Assembly: GCA_041666185.1 (NCBI GenBank)
Contig: JBAYHL010000004.1
Location: forward strand, 105-64,104
From: Patescibacteria group bacterium
Lineage (GTDB): Bacteria > Patescibacteriota > UBA1384 > UBA12157 > JAENIV01
Direction of reading: 5' to 3'
DNA length: 64,000 nt
Shown here: one piece after another, positions 11,622 to 26,622 of the stretch
Layout: every line of letters starts with the position of its first letter
How positions within the stretch are numbered: position 1 is the first letter of the stretch
The notes under the pieces: generated by a model
Database searches by the model: none
Seen by the model: the letters and a program-made list of their open reading frames with translations, nothing else
Told to the model about the DNA's origin: nothing
Position numbers and translations under genes: made by a program

Positions 11622-11743
11622 AGTGCTGGCGTCGATCTACTTTCCCGGGACCTTGCGGTCCGAGTATCATCGACGCTATGGTGCTTAACTTCTCTGTTCG
11701 GAATGGAAAGAGGTGTACCCACCACGCTAAAACACCAGCACTT
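11622..11743 (-). rRNA. rrf: 5S ribosomal RNA
   Basis: The reverse complement reads AGUGCUGGUG...CCGAACAGAGAAGUUAAGC...CGCCAGCACU, with helix I ends pairing and the conserved CCGAAC...GAAGUUAAGC loop. Confidence 0.85.
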
Positions 11744-11865
11744 AAATTGCGAAGGATTATATTAACTTACAACTTACAATCACCAACTACAACAAGTTGT
11801 AGATTGTTTGTTGTGAATTATTAGTTATTTTTCATCAGTACCTTAGTAGTTGTTTCGTCAAAAAA

Positions 11866-14780
11866 GTTTCTCTTGGTTTATTAGTACTTCTCGGCTGAAA
11901 TTGTTGCCAATCTTACACCTGAAGCCTATCAACCCGGTGGTCTTCCGGGAACCTTAAACGAAGTCTAATCTTAGGACGGGCTTCCCGCTTATATGCCTTC
12001 AGCGGTTATCCCAACCGAACATAGCTACCCAGCAATGCTCTTGGTAGAACAACTGGTACACCAGAGGTTCGTCCACTCCGGTCCTCTCGTACTAGGAGTA
12101 GCCTCCCTCAAACTTCGAACGCCCACAGCAGATTAGGACCGAACTGTCTTACGACGTTCTGAACCCAGCTCGCGTACCCTTTTAATTGGCGAACAGCCAA
12201 ACCCTTGGGACGTACTTCCGCCCCAGGATAGGATGAGCCGACATCGAGGTGCCAAACCGCGCCGTCTATGTGGACTATTGGGCGCGATCAGCCTGTTATC
12301 CCCAGAGTAGCTTTTATCCGTTGAGCTCTGGCCACTTCGTACTGTGCCAGAGGATCACTAACTCCTGCTTTCGCATCTGCGCGACTTGTAAGTCTTGCAG
12401 TCAAGCTGACTTATGCGTTTGCACTATCACTCTGCTTTCCATACAGAGCTAGTCAACCTTTGAACGACTCCGTTACAATTTAGGAGTCAACCGCCCCAGT
12501 TAAACTACCCACCAGACACTGTCCCTTCACTTTTTGTGAGGGTTAGAATTAAAACTCCAACAGGGTGGTGTTACACTTTCGCCCGAAGGCTCCCACCTAC
12601 TCTATACAATCGAAGGTTTAACCCAATATCAAGCTATAGTAAAGCTTCATGGGGTCTTTCCGTCTTGCTGCGGGTAACCGGCATCTTTACCGGCATTGTA
12701 ATTTCACCGAGCCTTTCCCAGAGACAGTTTTCAGACCGTTATGCCATTCGTGCGGGTCGGAACTTACCCGACAAGGAAATTCGCTACCATAGAACGGTTA
12801 TAGTTACCGCTGCCGTTCACTAGGGCTTAAGTTCAAAGCTCACCCAAGTCTTGCGACTTGAGATCACCTCTCTCCGTAACCTTCTAGCACTGGGCAGGCA
12901 TCAGCCCCTATACATTCCAAGAATGGTTCGCAGGGACCTAAGTTTTTGATAAACAGTCGCCTGAAAAACGTTTGCTGCGGCCCCGCTAGGCGGGGCAATG
13001 CTTATCCCTAAGTTACGCATGCTTTTTTGCCGAGTTCCTTTGGGAAAGTTAGCTCGATCACCTTGGTATTCTCTACCTATCCACCTGCGTCGGTTTATGG
13101 TACGGATGCTGAAAGTAGTGGATTGCCACTTTTCTCGTCGCTTCTTTAACTTTACCTTTCAACCATAAGATTGGCAAAGCCTCTAAAACGCGTCATGACA
13201 ATATAGTCTTTTAACAGTTGACGAATATTCACGCCATGTCCATCGCCCTCACGGGCTTAGGCCCGACTAACCCCTCGCCGATTATCGTTGCGAGGGAAAC
13301 CTTAGATATTTGGTGGGCCGATTTCTCGTCGGCCTAATTCGTTACTCATACCAACATTCTCACTTCTTAACCGTCCAGCAACCCTCACGAGTCACCTTCA
13401 CTCAGTTAAGAACGCTCCCCTACCACCCGACTTACGTCGGGTCCGCATCTTCGGTGATAATTTTGAGCCCCGTTAAATTTTCGGCGCCGCAAACCTTGAC
13501 CAGTGAGCTGTTACGCTTTCTTTAAAGGATGGCTGCTTCTAAGCCAACCTCCTGGTTGTCAATGGACTGCGACATCCTTTCCCACTTAAATTATACTCTG
13601 GGACCTTAGATGGCGGTCTGGACTCTTTTCCTCTCGACTATGAAGCTTAGCCCCCACAGTCTGACTGACTTGCTTTAAATCTCTAGAATTTGGAGTTTGA
13701 TTAATTCGCCGACTTTCACCGGCAAAATCATCCAGAGCTCTACCGCTAGAGACCATACAAATCGCTATACCTAAATATATTTCGGGGAGAACCAGCTATT
13801 TCCGGGTTCGATTAGCATTTTACCACTATCCACAGGTCATCCCGACGTTTTGCAACGCGTCCGGGTTCGGGCCTCCACTCCGCTTTCACAGAGCTTCACC
13901 CTGCCCATGGATAGATCACCCGGTTTCGGGTCTAGTGACAGCGACAAAAACGCCCTTTCAGACTCGCTTTCGCTACGGCTTCTCCGCTATCGCGGATTAA
14001 CCAAGCCACTGCCAGCTAACTCGTTGGTTCATTCTACAAAAGGCACGCCGTCACCCCGTCAAAAGACGAAGCTCCGACTCCTTGTAAGCATATGGTTTCA
14101 GGTACTATTTCACTCCCCAATTAGGGGTACTTTTCACCTTTCCCTCACGGTACTAGTTCACTATCGGTCACGGAAGATATTTAGTCTTGGGAGACGATCC
14201 TCCCATCTTCTTTCTAGCTTACACGTGGCTAGAAATACTTGCCCAATCTCGTCAAAGACGAAATTAGTAATTATTACAGTCAAAACTTTATTTTAATCTA
14301 CGGGACTATTACCCTCTTTGGTCGTCCTTTCCAGACTCATTCGACTAATAAAATTTTCTTATAATAATCAGACTTTTCCCTGTTCGCTCGCCACTACTTA
14401 GGGAATCACAAACTAAAGCGTTCTCGAGAGAAGCTTTAATTTCTCATTTTAGATGAGTGTTGTTTTCTTTTCCTGCGGTTACTAAGATGTTTCAGTTCAC
14501 CGCGTACCCTCCCTATGCAGAAGCCCAAGCACTAGCGGGATTGAAGGCCTTAAAATCTGATCCCTAAAAATTTAAATGGATCAAAAGGCTCCAACTAGCA
14601 CTGGGAATTCTACACAGGGCAACCTGCTCTTCGCAGGCTGGGTTTCCCCATTCGGAAATCTTCGGATCAAAGGATGTTTGGTTCCTCCCCGAAGCGTATC
14701 GCGCACCTACCGCGTCCTTCATCGGTCTTCCGTGCCAAGGCATCCTCCATATGCTCTTATGAAAAACTAAATTGATAAAA
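11866..14780 (-). rRNA. rrl: 23S ribosomal RNA (~2.9 kb)
   Basis: The reverse complement contains GGAUGCCUUGG (near 14740, 5' domain), GAACUGAAACAUCUAAGUA (~14495), GUAGCGGCGAGCGAA (~14385), and a 3'-domain GUUGAUAGGC...GGUACUAAUAAACC near 11870-11950. ORFs called inside are artefacts. Confidence 0.9.
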
Positions 14781-14893
14781 CAACTACCAAGGCACTGATG
14801 ATTCTGTTGTTAAAGTAGCCAGATTACTGGATAATCGGATGAATAGAGCAATCTCTAATCCTCTGATTATCTAACAACCTTTATTTATGATGT

Positions 14894-24349: not shown

Positions 24350-24982
24350 CTAAGGTAATAATTGAAATGATTTGCTAAGCTCACTTAATAAATCGTTTTT
24401 ACTACTATCTTGATAGTTGGTGCCAAATTCAAAAATATAATTATCTTCAGAAACCGCGTAAGCATAATTATAATTTTCCGGATTAATATTTTGAACTGTA
24501 TAACCTTTTTGACCTGCCATCTCAATTTCTGAACCTAACTTAAAACCATTTGAAGAATTATAACTTTTATTAATCCATTCTAACAAAGTTAATTGTTTTT
24601 TTGGTTCGTAGATTTTAAGGTAAATATTTTTCTTTAAATTAGAGACATCTGTTTTATCTGCTTGACTCGCATCTTGGGCACTGCTCGAATTATTAAAACC
24701 CACTTGAAAAATTAATTCTTTATTAGACGAACCAGCACCGCTCTTTTGCTCTTGCCAAGTTGAAGGGTACTTAAAAGAAAAGCCATAAATTTCATTAGTA
24801 TAAGTTTTATAATTTACTTCTTGCGATTTAGTCACAACAGGTGTTATTGATACAGATGCCGACTTAACTGATTTATTAGTTTTTAAATACTTTGCTAATA
24901 AAAAACTTGAAACTGCTGAAATAATTAAAACTAAAAAGAAAATAAAAACCCAAAATATTTTTTTAGACGCCTGGGATCTCAT
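24350..24982 (-). CDS. Hypothetical membrane-anchored/secreted protein (210 aa) in the 16S to tRNA-Ile spacer
   Basis: N-terminal TM or signal segment, Ser/Asn-rich, no family match. Confidence 0.5.
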   Translation of the reverse strand: MRSQASKKIFWVFIFFLVLIISAVSSFLLAKYLKTNKSVKSASVSITPVVTKSQEVNYKTYTNEIYGFSFKYPSTWQEQKSGAGSSNKELIFQVGFNNSSSAQDASQADKTDVSNLKKNIYLKIYEPKKQLTLLEWINKSYNSSNGFKLGSEIEMAGQKGYTVQNINPENYNYAYAVSEDNYIFEFGTNYQDSSKNDLLSELSKSFQLLP

Positions 24983-25159
24983 TATCCCTACCTTTTACTA
25001 AATTATTTTTTACTATTTTAAGGATATCAAAAATTAGACCAATTAAAAAGAGGCATTCAGATCTTTTACGGCTGCAAGAAAGACGTCTCCATTACAAAAT
25101 CATAATGCACGACGATCGACACTGCTATCCTCACAAAAAGTGAGGCTAGGTGTTTACTC

Positions 25160-26622
25160 CCTAGAAAGGAGGTGATCCATCCCCTGATTCCCCAAGGGAT
25201 ACCTTGTTACGACTTAGTGCTCCTTACCGACTTGGCCGTGGTCCAACATAACATCAGACTTCGGGCCCCGCCGACTCGGCTCACTTGACGGGCGGTGTGT
25301 ACAAGACTCGAGAACGTATTCACCGTGGTATGCTGACCCACGATTACTAGCGATTCCAACTTCATGAGGTCGAATTGCAGACCTCAATCCGTACTGGGGC
25401 AGTTTTTAAAAGATTTGCTTGACCTTACGGTTTTGCAACTTTTTATTTCTACCATTGTAGCACGTGTGTTGCCCAGGACGTAAGAGCCACGCTGATTTGA
25501 CGTCGTCTGCGCCTTCCTCCGTATAAACTACGGCAGTCTTCTGTGAAAATTAACACAGAACACAGGTTTCGCTCGTTGGACCACTTAAGGCCACACTTTA
25601 CAGCACGAGCTGACGACAACCGTGCAGCACCTGTCTTAGAGCTCCCTTGCGGGCACGGCCACGTTTCTGCGGCCTTCTCTAGATGTCAAGTCCTGGTAAG
25701 GTTCTTCGCTTATTGTCGAATTAAACCACATGCTCCACCGCTTGTGCGAGTCCCCGTCAATTCCTTTGAGTTTTAGTCTTGCGACCGTACTTCCCAGGCG
25801 GCAGACTTAACGCGTTAGCTTCGCTACAAGAAGGGTCGATACTTCTGATAGCTAGTCTGCATCGTTTACGGCGTGGACTACCGGGGTATCTAATCCCGTT
25901 CGCTCCCCACGCTTTCGTATCTCAGTGTCAGTATTAACCTAGCAAGCTGCCTTCGCCATTGGTGTTCTTCCCGATATCAACGCATTTCACTGCTACACCG
26001 GGAGTTCCACTTGCCCCTGTTAAACTCTAGAACTTTAGTTTCAAATCCAGAACCGCAGTTAAGCCACGGCCTTTTAAATTCGACTTGAAGTCCCACCTAC
26101 ATACTCTTTACGCCCAATAATTCCGGACAACGCTTGGACCCTACGTATTACCGCTGCTGCTGGCACGTAGTTAGCAGGTCCTTATTCTTAGGGTACCGTC
26201 ACAATCGTCCCCTAAAAAAGGTCTTTACACCCCGAAAGGCTTCTTCGACCACGCGGCGTCGCTGCGTCAGGCTGTCGCCCATTGCGCAATATTCCCAACT
26301 GCTGCCACCCGTAGGTGTATGGGCCGTGTCTCAGTCCCATTGTGGCTGGTCATCCTCTCAGACCAACTACCCGTCGTTGCCTTGGTAGGCTATTACCCCA
26401 CCAACAAGCTGATAGGTACAAGGCCGATCTCATTCCGCCGGAGCTTTACTCTTGCGAGACTATGGGACATTAGCCAACCTTTCGGCTGGGTATTTCCCGG
26501 AATAAGGCACGTTCCTTGCTATTACTCACCCGTTCGCCACGCTCTTGCGAGCGTACGACTTGCATGTGTTAGGCACGCCGCCAGCGTTCGTCCTGAGCCA
26601 GGATCAAACTCTCAATAAATTG
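25160..26622 (-). rRNA. rrs: 16S ribosomal RNA (~1.46 kb, short)
   Basis: The reverse complement begins AGAGUUUGAUCCUGGCUCAG (26603-26622) and ends ...GGUUACCUUGUUACGACUU...GGAUCACCUCCUUUCU (~25160-25200). ORFs called inside are artefacts. Confidence 0.95.

Follow-up and report, generated by a model that had tools for sequence, protein, structure and literature searches.

How did the ribosomal RNA (rRNA) genes of this bacterium come to be separated by protein-coding genes, and how are they transcribed in this state? The stretch in question, 64,000 nucleotides (nt) of contig JBAYHL010000004.1 (assembly GCA_041666185.1) from a Patescibacteria group bacterium, is called the window below. Rfam covariance models and ARAGORN identified the genes for 16S rRNA, tRNA-Ile(GAU), tRNA-Ala(UGC), 23S rRNA and 5S rRNA, all on the minus strand and in the canonical order. 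A gap of 10,396 nt, with ten protein open reading frames (ORFs) of which one is on the opposite strand, lies between 16S and 23S, and 8,592 nt of it between tRNA-Ala and 23S. Sequence comparison suggests that the ancestral operon was taken apart long ago with its order and strand kept, and that the locus very probably consists of three autonomous transcription units, one for 16S, one for the tRNAs and one for 23S-5S. The co-oriented layout split by protein genes had been described in an earlier note, made from the sequence alone, and was confirmed by Rfam, ARAGORN and the ORF calls. The ORFs and domains named there also agreed with the Pfam searches and ORF calls, all genes being co-oriented except for a plus-strand lectin gene.

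Protein-coding genes between 16S and 23S had been regarded in that note as unusual. This is true for bacteria at large, but they are the documented norm for the Candidate Phyla Radiation (CPR)/Patescibacteria. Unlinked rRNA genes are defined by more than 1500 bp between 16S and 23S, and Patescibacteria count among the clades in which this state is coherent (Brewer et al. 2019/2020, 10.1101/705046). Unlinked genes with protein genes in the spacers were found in 27 of 34 circular CPR genomes; one genome of UBA1384 (Berkelbacteria in that study) has 26,291 bp between the small- and large-subunit genes, and type D of the classification requires that more than 2000 bp, including a gene on the opposite strand, separate the two rRNA genes (Lui et al. 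2021, PMC8172020). The distance in the window exceeds both limits, and the lectin gene lies on the opposite strand with a predicted promoter of its own; under this criterion, one promoter cannot serve both 16S and 23S. The source and its relatives belong to Patescibacteria/Berkelbacteria, and when relatives were compared for a contiguous 16S-Ile-Ala-23S order, every one examined was already split. Compared with a canonical rrn operon, the order on one strand, boxA and the processing stems are present; the short spacer (less than about 1.5 kb, tRNAs only) is absent, and so is a single promoter without internal terminators, as judged from predictions and their conservation. The locus belongs to the documented unlinked rRNA genes of CPR and is no anomaly among its relatives. 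What appears to go beyond the available literature, on the basis of sequence comparison and folding, is the set of three conserved promoters, a gene pair conserved at class level and bracketed by tRNAs, and a candidate attenuator in the 23S leader.

The split locus and its predicted transcription units

Three sets of loci were used for comparison: the genomic contexts of the ORF156 family (ORF156 and ORF69 are the two genes between tRNA-Ile and tRNA-Ala), a set of 80 taken from the species genomes of GTDB, and another of 58 that the 23S 5'-stem motif retrieved from metagenomes. On all three sets (loci numbered L001 and so on), the rRNAs, tRNAs and homologues of window genes were mapped, and the window ORFs were searched for protein domains with Pfam, NCBIfam and PHROGs. 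The ORF156 protein is annotated from a 'Patescibacteria group bacterium' metagenome-assembled genome (MAG), and the relatives in GTDB genomes are mostly labelled Candidatus Berkelbacteria; the locus comes from a CPR/Patescibacteria member of the Berkelbacteria type. A recurring skeleton was observed, in the order 16S, slot, tRNA-Ile, ORF156-ORF69, tRNA-Ala, slot, MSC gene, slot, 23S and 5S, where the MSC protein matches the transmembrane part of MscS-like channels.

Both 16S (1455 nt) and 23S (2906 nt) of the window are intact, without intron or insertion. The leader and trailer of each gene form a long processing duplex (-50.7 kcal/mol for 16S; -51.3 kcal/mol for 23S, corresponding to the 41-nt inverted repeat I1), and the anti-Shine-Dalgarno sequence CACCTCCTT was read at the 16S 3' end. 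Because of these stems and the anti-Shine-Dalgarno sequence both rRNAs look functional; together with the full-model match of 16S, this speaks against the possibility, foreseen in the earlier note, that the 16S here might be a pseudogene. The 5S gene is enclosed by a flanking stem of 27 nt (11606-11632 / 11732-11758; inverted repeat I3) followed by T6, which is the likely end of the 23S-5S unit. As a separate observation, LAGLIDADG homing-endonuclease ORFs are present in or beside 16S and 23S of relatives (L003, 6832-7296; L004, 5574-6047; L010, 881-1387 and 9392-9955).

Promoters and terminators were searched by consensus scans in comparison with shuffled sequences, and weight was given only to sites conserved in relatives. 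The first unit would start from a perfect sigma-70 promoter and include a leader with a Shine-Dalgarno (SD)-like sequence, a terminator-like hairpin and boxA, followed by 16S, which its own processing stem encloses. In the equivalent place, L004/L020, L007, L112/L019 and L137 have promoters that match at 11-12 of 12 positions. The second unit would be transcribed from a conserved promoter through tRNA-Ile, ORF156, ORF69 and tRNA-Ala; the sequence TTGAAA-17-TGnTAAAAT is located directly 5' of tRNA-Ile also in L007, L013, L019, L017 and L026, with variants in L015, L023 and L041, and in relatives this promoter often stands right behind a terminator. The third unit is predicted to carry a conserved promoter, a 13-codon leader ORF with terminator and antiterminator, boxA, and 23S and 5S each in its own stem. 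The slots between these anchors vary by genome. In the window they hold genes for a PsbP-like protein, an orphan cassette, a kinase-receiver pair, a lectin, a NUDIX protein and a pilin-type protein with a lamin-tail domain (LTD), most of them with predicted promoters and terminators of their own, and the MSC gene would accompany the 23S unit. Coordinates of all features are listed in the table.

Table. Features of the rRNA locus in the window, in the direction of rRNA transcription
Feature	Coordinates	Strand	Basis and remarks
16S promoter TTGACA-17-TATAAT (predicted)	26918-26946	minus	consensus scan; 12/12 matches
16S leader, first part	26789-26897	minus	SD-like AAGGAG 26897-26892; 8-codon mini-ORF 26891-26865; hairpin
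A-tract/T-tract hairpin of 16S leader	26830-26798, then T-run	minus	scan and sequence reading
boxA-like ACTTTAACAAC of 16S leader	26755-26765	minus	direct repeat D11 with 23S leader; kept in relatives
16S processing stem	5' strand 26690-26745, 3' strand 25040-25095	minus	duplex fold
16S rRNA gene	25165-26619	minus	Rfam RF00177, 1438 bits, model positions 1-1533
PsbP_2-like gene, 210 amino acids (aa), N-terminal hydrophobic segment	24350-24982	minus	Pfam PF18933, E = 1.3e-7
tRNA-Ile promoter TTGAAA-17-TAAAAT (predicted)	24317-24345	minus	consensus scan
Fragment like tRNA-Ile 5' half GCGGACGATTAGCTCAGTAAGGAGCG	24254-24279	minus	sequence reading, no statistics
tRNA-Ile(GAU)	24155-24231	minus	Rfam and ARAGORN
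ORF156, polytopic membrane protein	23658-24128	minus	starts 26 nt after tRNA-Ile
ORF69 (85-aa ORF, 69 aa from ATG), two hydrophobic segments	23470-23679	minus	gene calls
tRNA-Ala(UGC)	23361-23435	minus	Rfam and ARAGORN
Weak terminator-like hairpin CAGG..CCTG + T7	23330-23351	minus	directly after tRNA-Ala; fold -6.8 kcal/mol
Orphan cassette	22803-23230	minus	perfect promoter 23230-23202, SD, 95-aa ORF, terminator 22835-22803 (predicted)
ORF95 (95/108 aa)	22887-23174 (108-aa form to 23213)	minus	ORF call
Exact 13-nt repeat of tRNA-Ala 3' end CTCAGGTCCACCA	22678-22690	minus	sequence reading; 670 nt past tRNA-Ala
AT-rich hairpin + T-run	22642-22666	minus	sequence reading; fewer than 3 G-C pairs, so unlisted by scan
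PAS/GAF histidine kinase	19207-22542	minus	Pfam
Receiver	18767-19186	minus	Pfam
Hairpins of kinase-to-NUDIX block	about 18722-18693 and 17186-17163		sequence reading
C-type lectin	17945-18694	plus	Pfam; own predicted promoter 17885-17912 (plus)
NUDIX	17217-17795	minus	Pfam; own predicted promoter 17862-17834 (minus)
MSC unit	16264-17148	minus	leader 17148-17021; 225/230-aa protein 16328-17020; strong predicted terminator 16310-16264
Prepilin-type N-methyl + LTD protein	15053-16213	minus	Pfam and NCBIfam
23S promoter TTGACA-17-TGnTAAAAT (predicted)	15014-15042	minus	scan; kept in 16/18 distinct leaders covering the region
23S-leader element	14895-15008	minus	SD, short ORF, hairpin 1, GC hairpin, T7
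13-codon short ORF MYGKDNLGEGARG	14994-14953	minus	23S leader
GC hairpin CCGCC-GTCAA-GGCGG + T7	14916-14902, T7 14901-14895	minus	scan
boxA-like ACTTTAACAAC of 23S leader	14806-14816	minus	direct repeat D11; kept in relatives
23S processing stem	5' strand 14761-14801, 3' strand 11832-11872	minus	inverted repeat I1
23S rRNA gene	11863-14768	minus	Rfam RF02541, 2395 bits, model positions 1-2925
5S rRNA	11624-11739	minus	Rfam RF00001; whole element with stem and T6, 11602-11758

Nested units had been proposed in the earlier note from a promoter at 17885 and terminators at 14894 and 22640. The scan indeed detected the plus-strand promoter and, close to 14894, the GC hairpin with its T-run; near 22640 a hairpin and T-run can be seen by eye, but they escape the scan. 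The proposal of nested units itself gains support from the conserved promoters 5' of tRNA-Ile and of 23S, the intervening predicted terminators and the opposite-strand gene. In the window, hairpins with T-runs that could act as barriers stand at 22666-22642 and behind four genes: tRNA-Ala (where the hairpin is weak), ORF95, NUDIX and MSC. Separate units rather than one 15-kb transcript are favoured by the conserved promoters, these hairpins and the convergent arrangement of the receiver and lectin genes.

Several observations weigh against three autonomous units. All promoters and terminators are predictions, and the scans over 17 kb gave no enrichment above shuffled sequences (46 promoters versus 40.1 +/- 5.4; 17 terminators versus 14.0 +/- 4.0), so that such sites carry weight only through their conservation. 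With a weak hairpin after tRNA-Ala and a 16S unit that lacks a defined 3' end, some read-through between units is possible. In both rRNA leaders a terminator-like hairpin separates the promoter from the gene, which one would not expect where expression is high. We infer where transcripts begin and end, that the mRNA is freed by tRNA processing, and any regulation. The co-orientation of all genes but one, the canonical order, the presence of boxA-like elements in both rRNA leaders and the weak tRNA-Ala hairpin would also suit a single long transcript that starts at the 16S promoter and reads through to 23S-5S under boxA/Nus antitermination, internal promoters only adding to it. This is nevertheless very improbable, given a conserved near-consensus promoter and a complete second leader immediately 5' of 23S, five or more hairpin/T-run terminators and two convergent genes in between, the inversion of the MSC-leader block in L018, tRNA-Ile on the other strand in L021, 16S-23S distances of up to 26 kb in relatives, and a clear terminator in L017 60 nt past the 16S trailer. 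That the locus might be a product of wrongly joined contigs was also considered, as rRNA regions are classical break and join points of metagenome assemblies and many members of the ORF156 family are on contigs of about 1 kb. Against this stand a separate ENA megahit contig (L001), which is collinear with the window and 99.78% identical over 13656-34129 (20.5 kb), and a JGI contig (L002) that spans tRNA-Ile to tRNA-Ala at 99.87% identity. More than 15 related genomes have the same layout, among them CP011213.1, which is complete, and OY969116.1, a chromosome-level MAG of 929 kb, and the flanks (ClpP upstream, peptidase M15 downstream) are syntenic in relatives. Because of this independent collinear assembly and the recurrent order, the misassembly at the tRNAs that the earlier note had reckoned with is excluded; the join is not an assembly artefact, and as an explanation of the locus such an artefact is exceedingly improbable.

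A recent origin of the split, in which mobile or accessory DNA interrupted an intact operon at a hotspot and every gene in between is cargo, draws its arguments from the slot after tRNA-Ala. This slot is 6.3 kb long in the window against about 230 nt (tRNA-Ala to MSC gene) in the nearest relatives L008/L009; an exact 13-nt repeat of the tRNA-Ala 3' end is located inside it, and duplicates of the tRNA-Ala 3' half lie behind tRNA-Ala in L015 and L047. ORF95 in this slot looks foreign in its G+C content at third codon positions (GC3; 0.469 versus a window background of 0.247 +/- 0.033) and had no homologue among 5.8 billion proteins. The codon-usage check suggested in the earlier note thus singled out ORF95 and, mildly, the NUDIX gene (0.347), but the kinase, receiver, lectin and pilin genes are host-like, which speaks against a foreign origin of the cargo as a whole. 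Also against it are the absence of integrase or transposase domains (Pfam) from the ORFs between 14.8 and 25.2 kb, where PHROGs gave only a NUDIX match, and the housekeeping genes found in the gaps of relatives: a ClpB/C-type AAA+ gene with a small membrane partner, cytidylate kinase and amidohydrolase. ORF156-ORF69 stay in place at 75-93% 16S identity, as does, among closer relatives, the MSC gene; the 23S and tRNA-Ile promoters are conserved; and among 150 loci no relative with more than 97% 16S identity has a contiguous operon without ORF156/ORF69. With conserved genes and promoters, and with every examined relative split, the hotspot reading accounts for some slots only and not for the split. 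A recent insertion as the cause is highly unlikely; by this comparison the split is ancient and not caused by the cargo after tRNA-Ala. The hotspot of the earlier note survives for certain slots, above all that 3' of tRNA-Ala, which seems to behave as a recombination-prone site, and its accessory cargo does not extend to ORF156-ORF69, the MSC gene or the housekeeping genes of relatives. The three-unit organization remains the very probable one.

The 23S leader and a candidate attenuator

Between the 23S promoter and boxA, an element was detected that consists of an SD sequence, a short ORF (sORF) of 13 codons, a small hairpin, and a GC hairpin followed by seven T residues, in which a terminator had already been seen by the earlier note. 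About 20 distinct versions were collected, of which 19 were used in most tests (window; L003/L017, L004/L020, L014, L019, L021, L024, L093-L149). An nhmmer profile of the element gave one match per locus, always immediately 5' of 23S, and a single match within the entire window at 15008-14892; Rfam families gave no match. The parts conserved in relatives are GGAG at proper spacing, ATG, an ORF of 12-15 codons with an internal RAGGGGG, a stop codon inside GG[A/C]TAAAC, the small hairpin, the GC hairpin and T5-7. The stem of the GC hairpin has 5-6 bp and is of either the CCGCC-GAAA-GGCGG or the TCCCGC-N4-GCGGGA subtype. The leader hairpin and the 23S stem of several relatives are a mere 19-33 nt apart, a distance taken up essentially by boxA and too short for any other promoter of 23S. 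L018 has its MSC gene and 23S-leader element (150-1096) on the strand opposite to the tRNA-Ile/ORF156/ORF69/tRNA-Ala unit (1271-2148), an inversion which implies that the 23S unit moves as a block.

The distance between the ATG and TAA anchors is 39, 42, 45 or 48 nt in 18 of the 19 versions, the remaining one having a 2-nt deletion, and the T-run begins 48-56 nt past the sORF stop in 16 of 19. In contrast to this in-frame variation of length, the codons showed no third-position bias (58 synonymous versus 209 non-synonymous changes); only Tyr2 and Asn6 are conserved and no run of a single codon exists. Examples of the leader ORF from other versions are MYETNNEKGVDG, MYRIDNLKGVCG and MYQIHNQKGVRG. 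A functional leader micropeptide is unsupported for lack of the third-position bias. The in-frame length variation together with the missing bias would fit an sORF that must be translated but whose peptide itself is unimportant.

Folding of the nascent leader indicated that the 5' arm of the terminator can be sequestered. In all 19 versions, 4-6 of its 5-6 bases were paired, mostly with the last codons of the sORF, and the paired fraction of arm bases was 88% compared with 63% in shuffled controls. The antiterminated and terminated states were within about 2 kcal/mol in 13 of 19 versions. When a ribosome footprint over the stop codon was masked, the mean probability of the terminator rose from 0.45 to 0.94; for the window it rose only from 0.24 to 0.42. 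Pairing of an ORF end was better with the terminator flank of its own version than with flanks from other versions (permutation P = 0.012). RNAalifold on a MAFFT alignment of the element gave no consensus structure, as the competing helix is in a different register in the TCCCGC subtype than in the TCCGCC subtype. In a second alignment (A4), the antiterminator-specific pairs were invariant G-C pairs within a subtype, which makes a covariance-model test uninformative.

One possible, though rather doubtful, interpretation of these predictions is a translation-sensing attenuator of rRNA synthesis. A ribosome that promptly translates the sORF would cover the strand sequestering the 5' arm of the terminator, the terminator would form, and transcription of 23S would abort. 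When ribosomes or initiation capacity are scarce, the antiterminator would form instead and polymerase would proceed to boxA and 23S. By such a switch, rRNA synthesis would be under a 'ribosome feedback' that acts directly and in cis. The 16S leader, with its similar geometry of SD-like sequence, mini-ORF and hairpin T-run, could then keep the output of 16S and 23S matched. If true, this would be a simple and testable mechanism of rRNA feedback control in organisms not culturable alone, and would explain how unlinked 16S and 23S are balanced, a question left open by the literature on unlinked rRNA genes. Searches of the open-access literature for ORFs or attenuators in rRNA leaders returned nothing relevant, which is no proof of absence.

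An untranslated or irrelevant sORF, with the GC hairpin acting as a boxB-like, processing or protein-binding element (for instance for a ribosomal protein) and a T-run that does not terminate in vivo, is the other reading of this leader and, short of being probable, a real possibility. It gains from the position of CCGCC-GAAA-GGCGG immediately before boxA in several relatives with the 19-33-nt gap, which recalls the boxB-boxA order of E. coli, from the weak constraint on the peptide noted above, and from the 16S leader, where a similar hairpin is found with no antiterminator. Less easily accommodated are the conserved SD at proper spacing and ATG, an ATG-TAA distance that is a multiple of three in 18 of 19 versions, a stop codon placed in the base of the helix that competes with the terminator, and a GC stem directly before five to seven T residues, the signature of an intrinsic terminator.

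For the 16S leader, the very stable hairpin was kept with changes on both arms in seven distinct leaders, and the mini-ORF, 5-8 codons long across leaders, stops 50-64 nt before the T-run of the hairpin. A competing helix analogous to that of the 23S leader was sought, but no consistent alternative pairing was found, and an antiterminator of the 23S kind was rejected for this leader. Rfam searches at permissive thresholds on both rRNA leaders gave chance-level matches far below gathering scores; Phe_leader, a match in the 16S leader, scored 18.7 bits versus a cutoff of 55 bits. An extra boxA-like sequence, TTTTTAACAA, precedes the hairpin in five of the seven leaders (window, L004, L007, L021, L093, L112 and L137).

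The tRNA-bracketed genes and the slots

ORF69 shares 22 nt with ORF156, stops 34 nt short of tRNA-Ala, and in relatives is always located behind ORF156. The gap between tRNA-Ile and ORF156 is 9-118 nt in 10 of the 16 related loci with both on one strand, and that between ORF69 and tRNA-Ala is 13-82 nt in 10 of 15; in the other loci insertions of up to 6 kb widen these gaps. Where the gaps are so short they cannot accommodate separate signals, and ORF156 and ORF69 are almost certainly transcribed together with both tRNAs. A single tRNA-mRNA-tRNA precursor would be formed, from which the mRNA could be released by tRNA end-processing. The module is present in at least 15 distinct genomes, with 16S 93% down to 79% identical to that of the window and 74.6% in one case, which corresponds to order-to-class depth; the most distant of them retain an ORF156 identity of about 27-30%. 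Among relatives at about 90% 16S identity, ORF69 and the MSC protein are 61-84% identical and ORF156 39-61%; for ORF69 by itself the figure was 66-84%. Judged from a position kept at 75-93% 16S identity, ORF156 and ORF69 are long-term residents and not cargo. For a very long time in evolution, two membrane-protein genes would thus have stayed between what used to be spacer tRNAs, and an mRNA conserved at class level and punctuated by tRNAs on both sides in a bacterium would be a second, milder novelty of the locus. That ORF156, ORF69 and MSC are tied to the rRNA locus may, as the simplest guess, serve to express them together with the translation apparatus.

The ORF156 family comprises 27 proteins with invariant H6, H32, D36, H40, D42, H123 and H127. 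ORF156 had been called hydrolase-like in the earlier note; the invariant His and Asp residues are present, and the match to YdjM/DUF457 is below cutoff (PF04307, E = 0.014, 15.3 bits versus 29 bits), as is that to Zn_dep_PLPC (E = 0.012). NCBIfam gave one chance-level match (AmaP, E = 0.04) and PHROGs gave none. The AlphaFold2 model is a helical membrane protein with a predicted local distance difference test score (pLDDT) of 89.6, and no solved structure in the PDB matched it.

Further features were observed around tRNA-Ile. Its flanks (24145-24245) add 14 bp to the acceptor stem (inverted repeat I7, 21 nt, 95%), and the fragment GCGGACGATTAGCTCAGTAAGGAGCG in its leader resembles the 5' half of tRNA-Ile of L013. 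A mini-ORF of four codons, ATGATTAAGTTATGA (MIKL*, 24142-24126, minus strand), is preceded by AAGG 5 nt upstream and overlaps the ORF156 start by ATGA, an overlap that may reflect translational coupling. No SD was seen before ORF156 in L007 and L013.

In the slot between 16S and tRNA-Ile, orthologues of the PsbP_2-like gene (37% identity) are found at the equivalent place only in the nearest relatives L007-9 and L013; other relatives have different genes there, and the slot size ranges from 250 nt to more than 6 kb. A ClpB/C-type AAA+ gene (805-839 aa) behind a gene of 123-144 aa was noted in L019 (7148-9941), L021 (5395-8176), L034 (2959-5894) and L047 (5342-8253). This pair occupies differing slots (16S/tRNA-Ile, tRNA-Ile/ORF156 or ORF69/tRNA-Ala) and is absent from the window locus.

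The slot after tRNA-Ala holds a gene of 151 aa, an amidohydrolase of 261 aa or a protein of 658 aa elsewhere, and the block 17217-22542 (kinase, receiver, lectin and NUDIX) is absent from the equivalent slot in all relatives. Terminators stronger than that of the window stand directly after tRNA-Ala in L026, L030 and L041. The tRNA-Ala 3'-half duplicates of L015 and L047 look like scars of site-specific integration, and CTCAGGTCCACCA in the window is a possible att scar. Its gapped local alignment score was within the range of shuffles and it brackets only the ORF95 cassette; the att idea survives because the 13-nt match is exact and analogous duplicates exist in the two relatives. The GC-rich 400-nt stretch of the orphan cassette was also considered as a diverged RNase P RNA or another noncoding RNA, a candidate rejected with no Rfam match at E <= 1 and a fold z of -1.7.

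The MSC protein matched Pfam PF05552 MS_channel_1st_1 (E = 9e-18) and NCBIfam msc (E = 1.9e-22, below its cutoff), and its gene, with 67-82% identity, is found upstream of 23S in L014, L017, L019, L020, L021 and others (about 90% 16S identity). The MSC leader of about 120 nt contains nested inverted repeats, GGATAGAGC...GAGCTATCC and CTACCTTAATT...AATTAAGGTAG, partly kept in L008/L009 (L008, 2786-2834). It gave no Rfam match at gathering threshold and could be a regulatory RNA. Without a terminator of its own, the prepilin-LTD gene downstream continues into the promoter and leader of 23S. The gene is missing from the equivalent slot in L003, L004, L014 and L019. Past the 5S gene, an ORF of 1801 aa with C-terminal peptidoglycan-binding domains (6124-11529, minus strand) begins after 95 nt and separates 5S from the peptidase-M15 gene, which directly follows 5S in L003, L004 and L010. 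The region between 5S and peptidase M15 is a further variable slot at the edge of the rRNA locus.

Comparison with known systems

The locus is most similar to the unlinked rRNA genes of CPR (types C and D of PMC8172020, which also names Mycoplasma, Borrelia, Buchnera and Wolbachia). In both, 16S and 23S are on the same strand more than 1.5-2 kb apart, tRNAs and protein genes lie in between with one gene on the opposite strand, and a single rRNA copy is carried by a small genome. Brewer et al. and Lui et al. classify by distance and strand only, and describe neither a tRNA-Ile/ORF156/ORF69/tRNA-Ala unit nor separate conserved promoters nor a 23S-leader ORF with terminator. The split operon is one more well-resolved example of a trait typical of CPR, and flagging it as an anomaly or a cargo hotspot is unwarranted. 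Its anatomy suggests how an operon can be dismantled yet stay functional: each RNA gene has a processing stem of its own, boxA is kept for each rRNA gene, each unit appears to have gained a near-consensus promoter, and the slots beside the tRNAs stayed open to gene turnover.

Separate 16S and 23S-5S units are known in Thermus, Helicobacter, Rickettsia/Wolbachia and Buchnera, and the cluster of Borrelia burgdorferi consists of 16S, tRNA-Ala, several ORFs, tRNA-Ile and tandem 23S-5S. Reduced genomes, one or few rRNA copies and transcription of 16S apart from 23S-5S are shared with these bacteria, and protein genes with spacer tRNAs between 16S and 23S are shared with Borrelia. Unlike in these cases, both spacer tRNAs here are canonical in order and orientation and bracket a conserved pair of protein genes.

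Among controlled leaders, the ribosome-mediated attenuators of trp, his and pheA have in common with the 23S leader a short leader ORF, an intrinsic terminator, and an alternative helix over the ORF end that sequesters the terminator 5' arm. The gene under the putative control is here an rRNA gene, no run of regulatory codons is present, the element has no similarity to any Rfam family, and the predicted logic is that translation gives termination, without a stalling step. The antitermination leaders of E. coli rrn operons are built as boxB-boxA-boxC. A boxA-like CTTTAACAA in the 16S leader and before 23S, a hairpin upstream of boxA and stems that enclose each rRNA are the points of likeness; in contrast, the hairpin here carries a T-run like a true terminator and stands behind an SD and a short ORF, and the second boxA lies in a separate leader with its own predicted promoter and not in a 16S-23S spacer.

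Mixed tRNA-mRNA operons are represented by thrU-tyrU-glyT-thrT-tufB and tyrT-tpr of E. coli, and 'tRNA punctuation' by mitochondria. As in these systems, a coding sequence would be co-transcribed with tRNAs and the ends of its mRNA would be cut by tRNA processing enzymes. The difference is that both former spacer tRNAs bracket the mRNA here, with co-transcription indicated by the spacing and a single upstream promoter.

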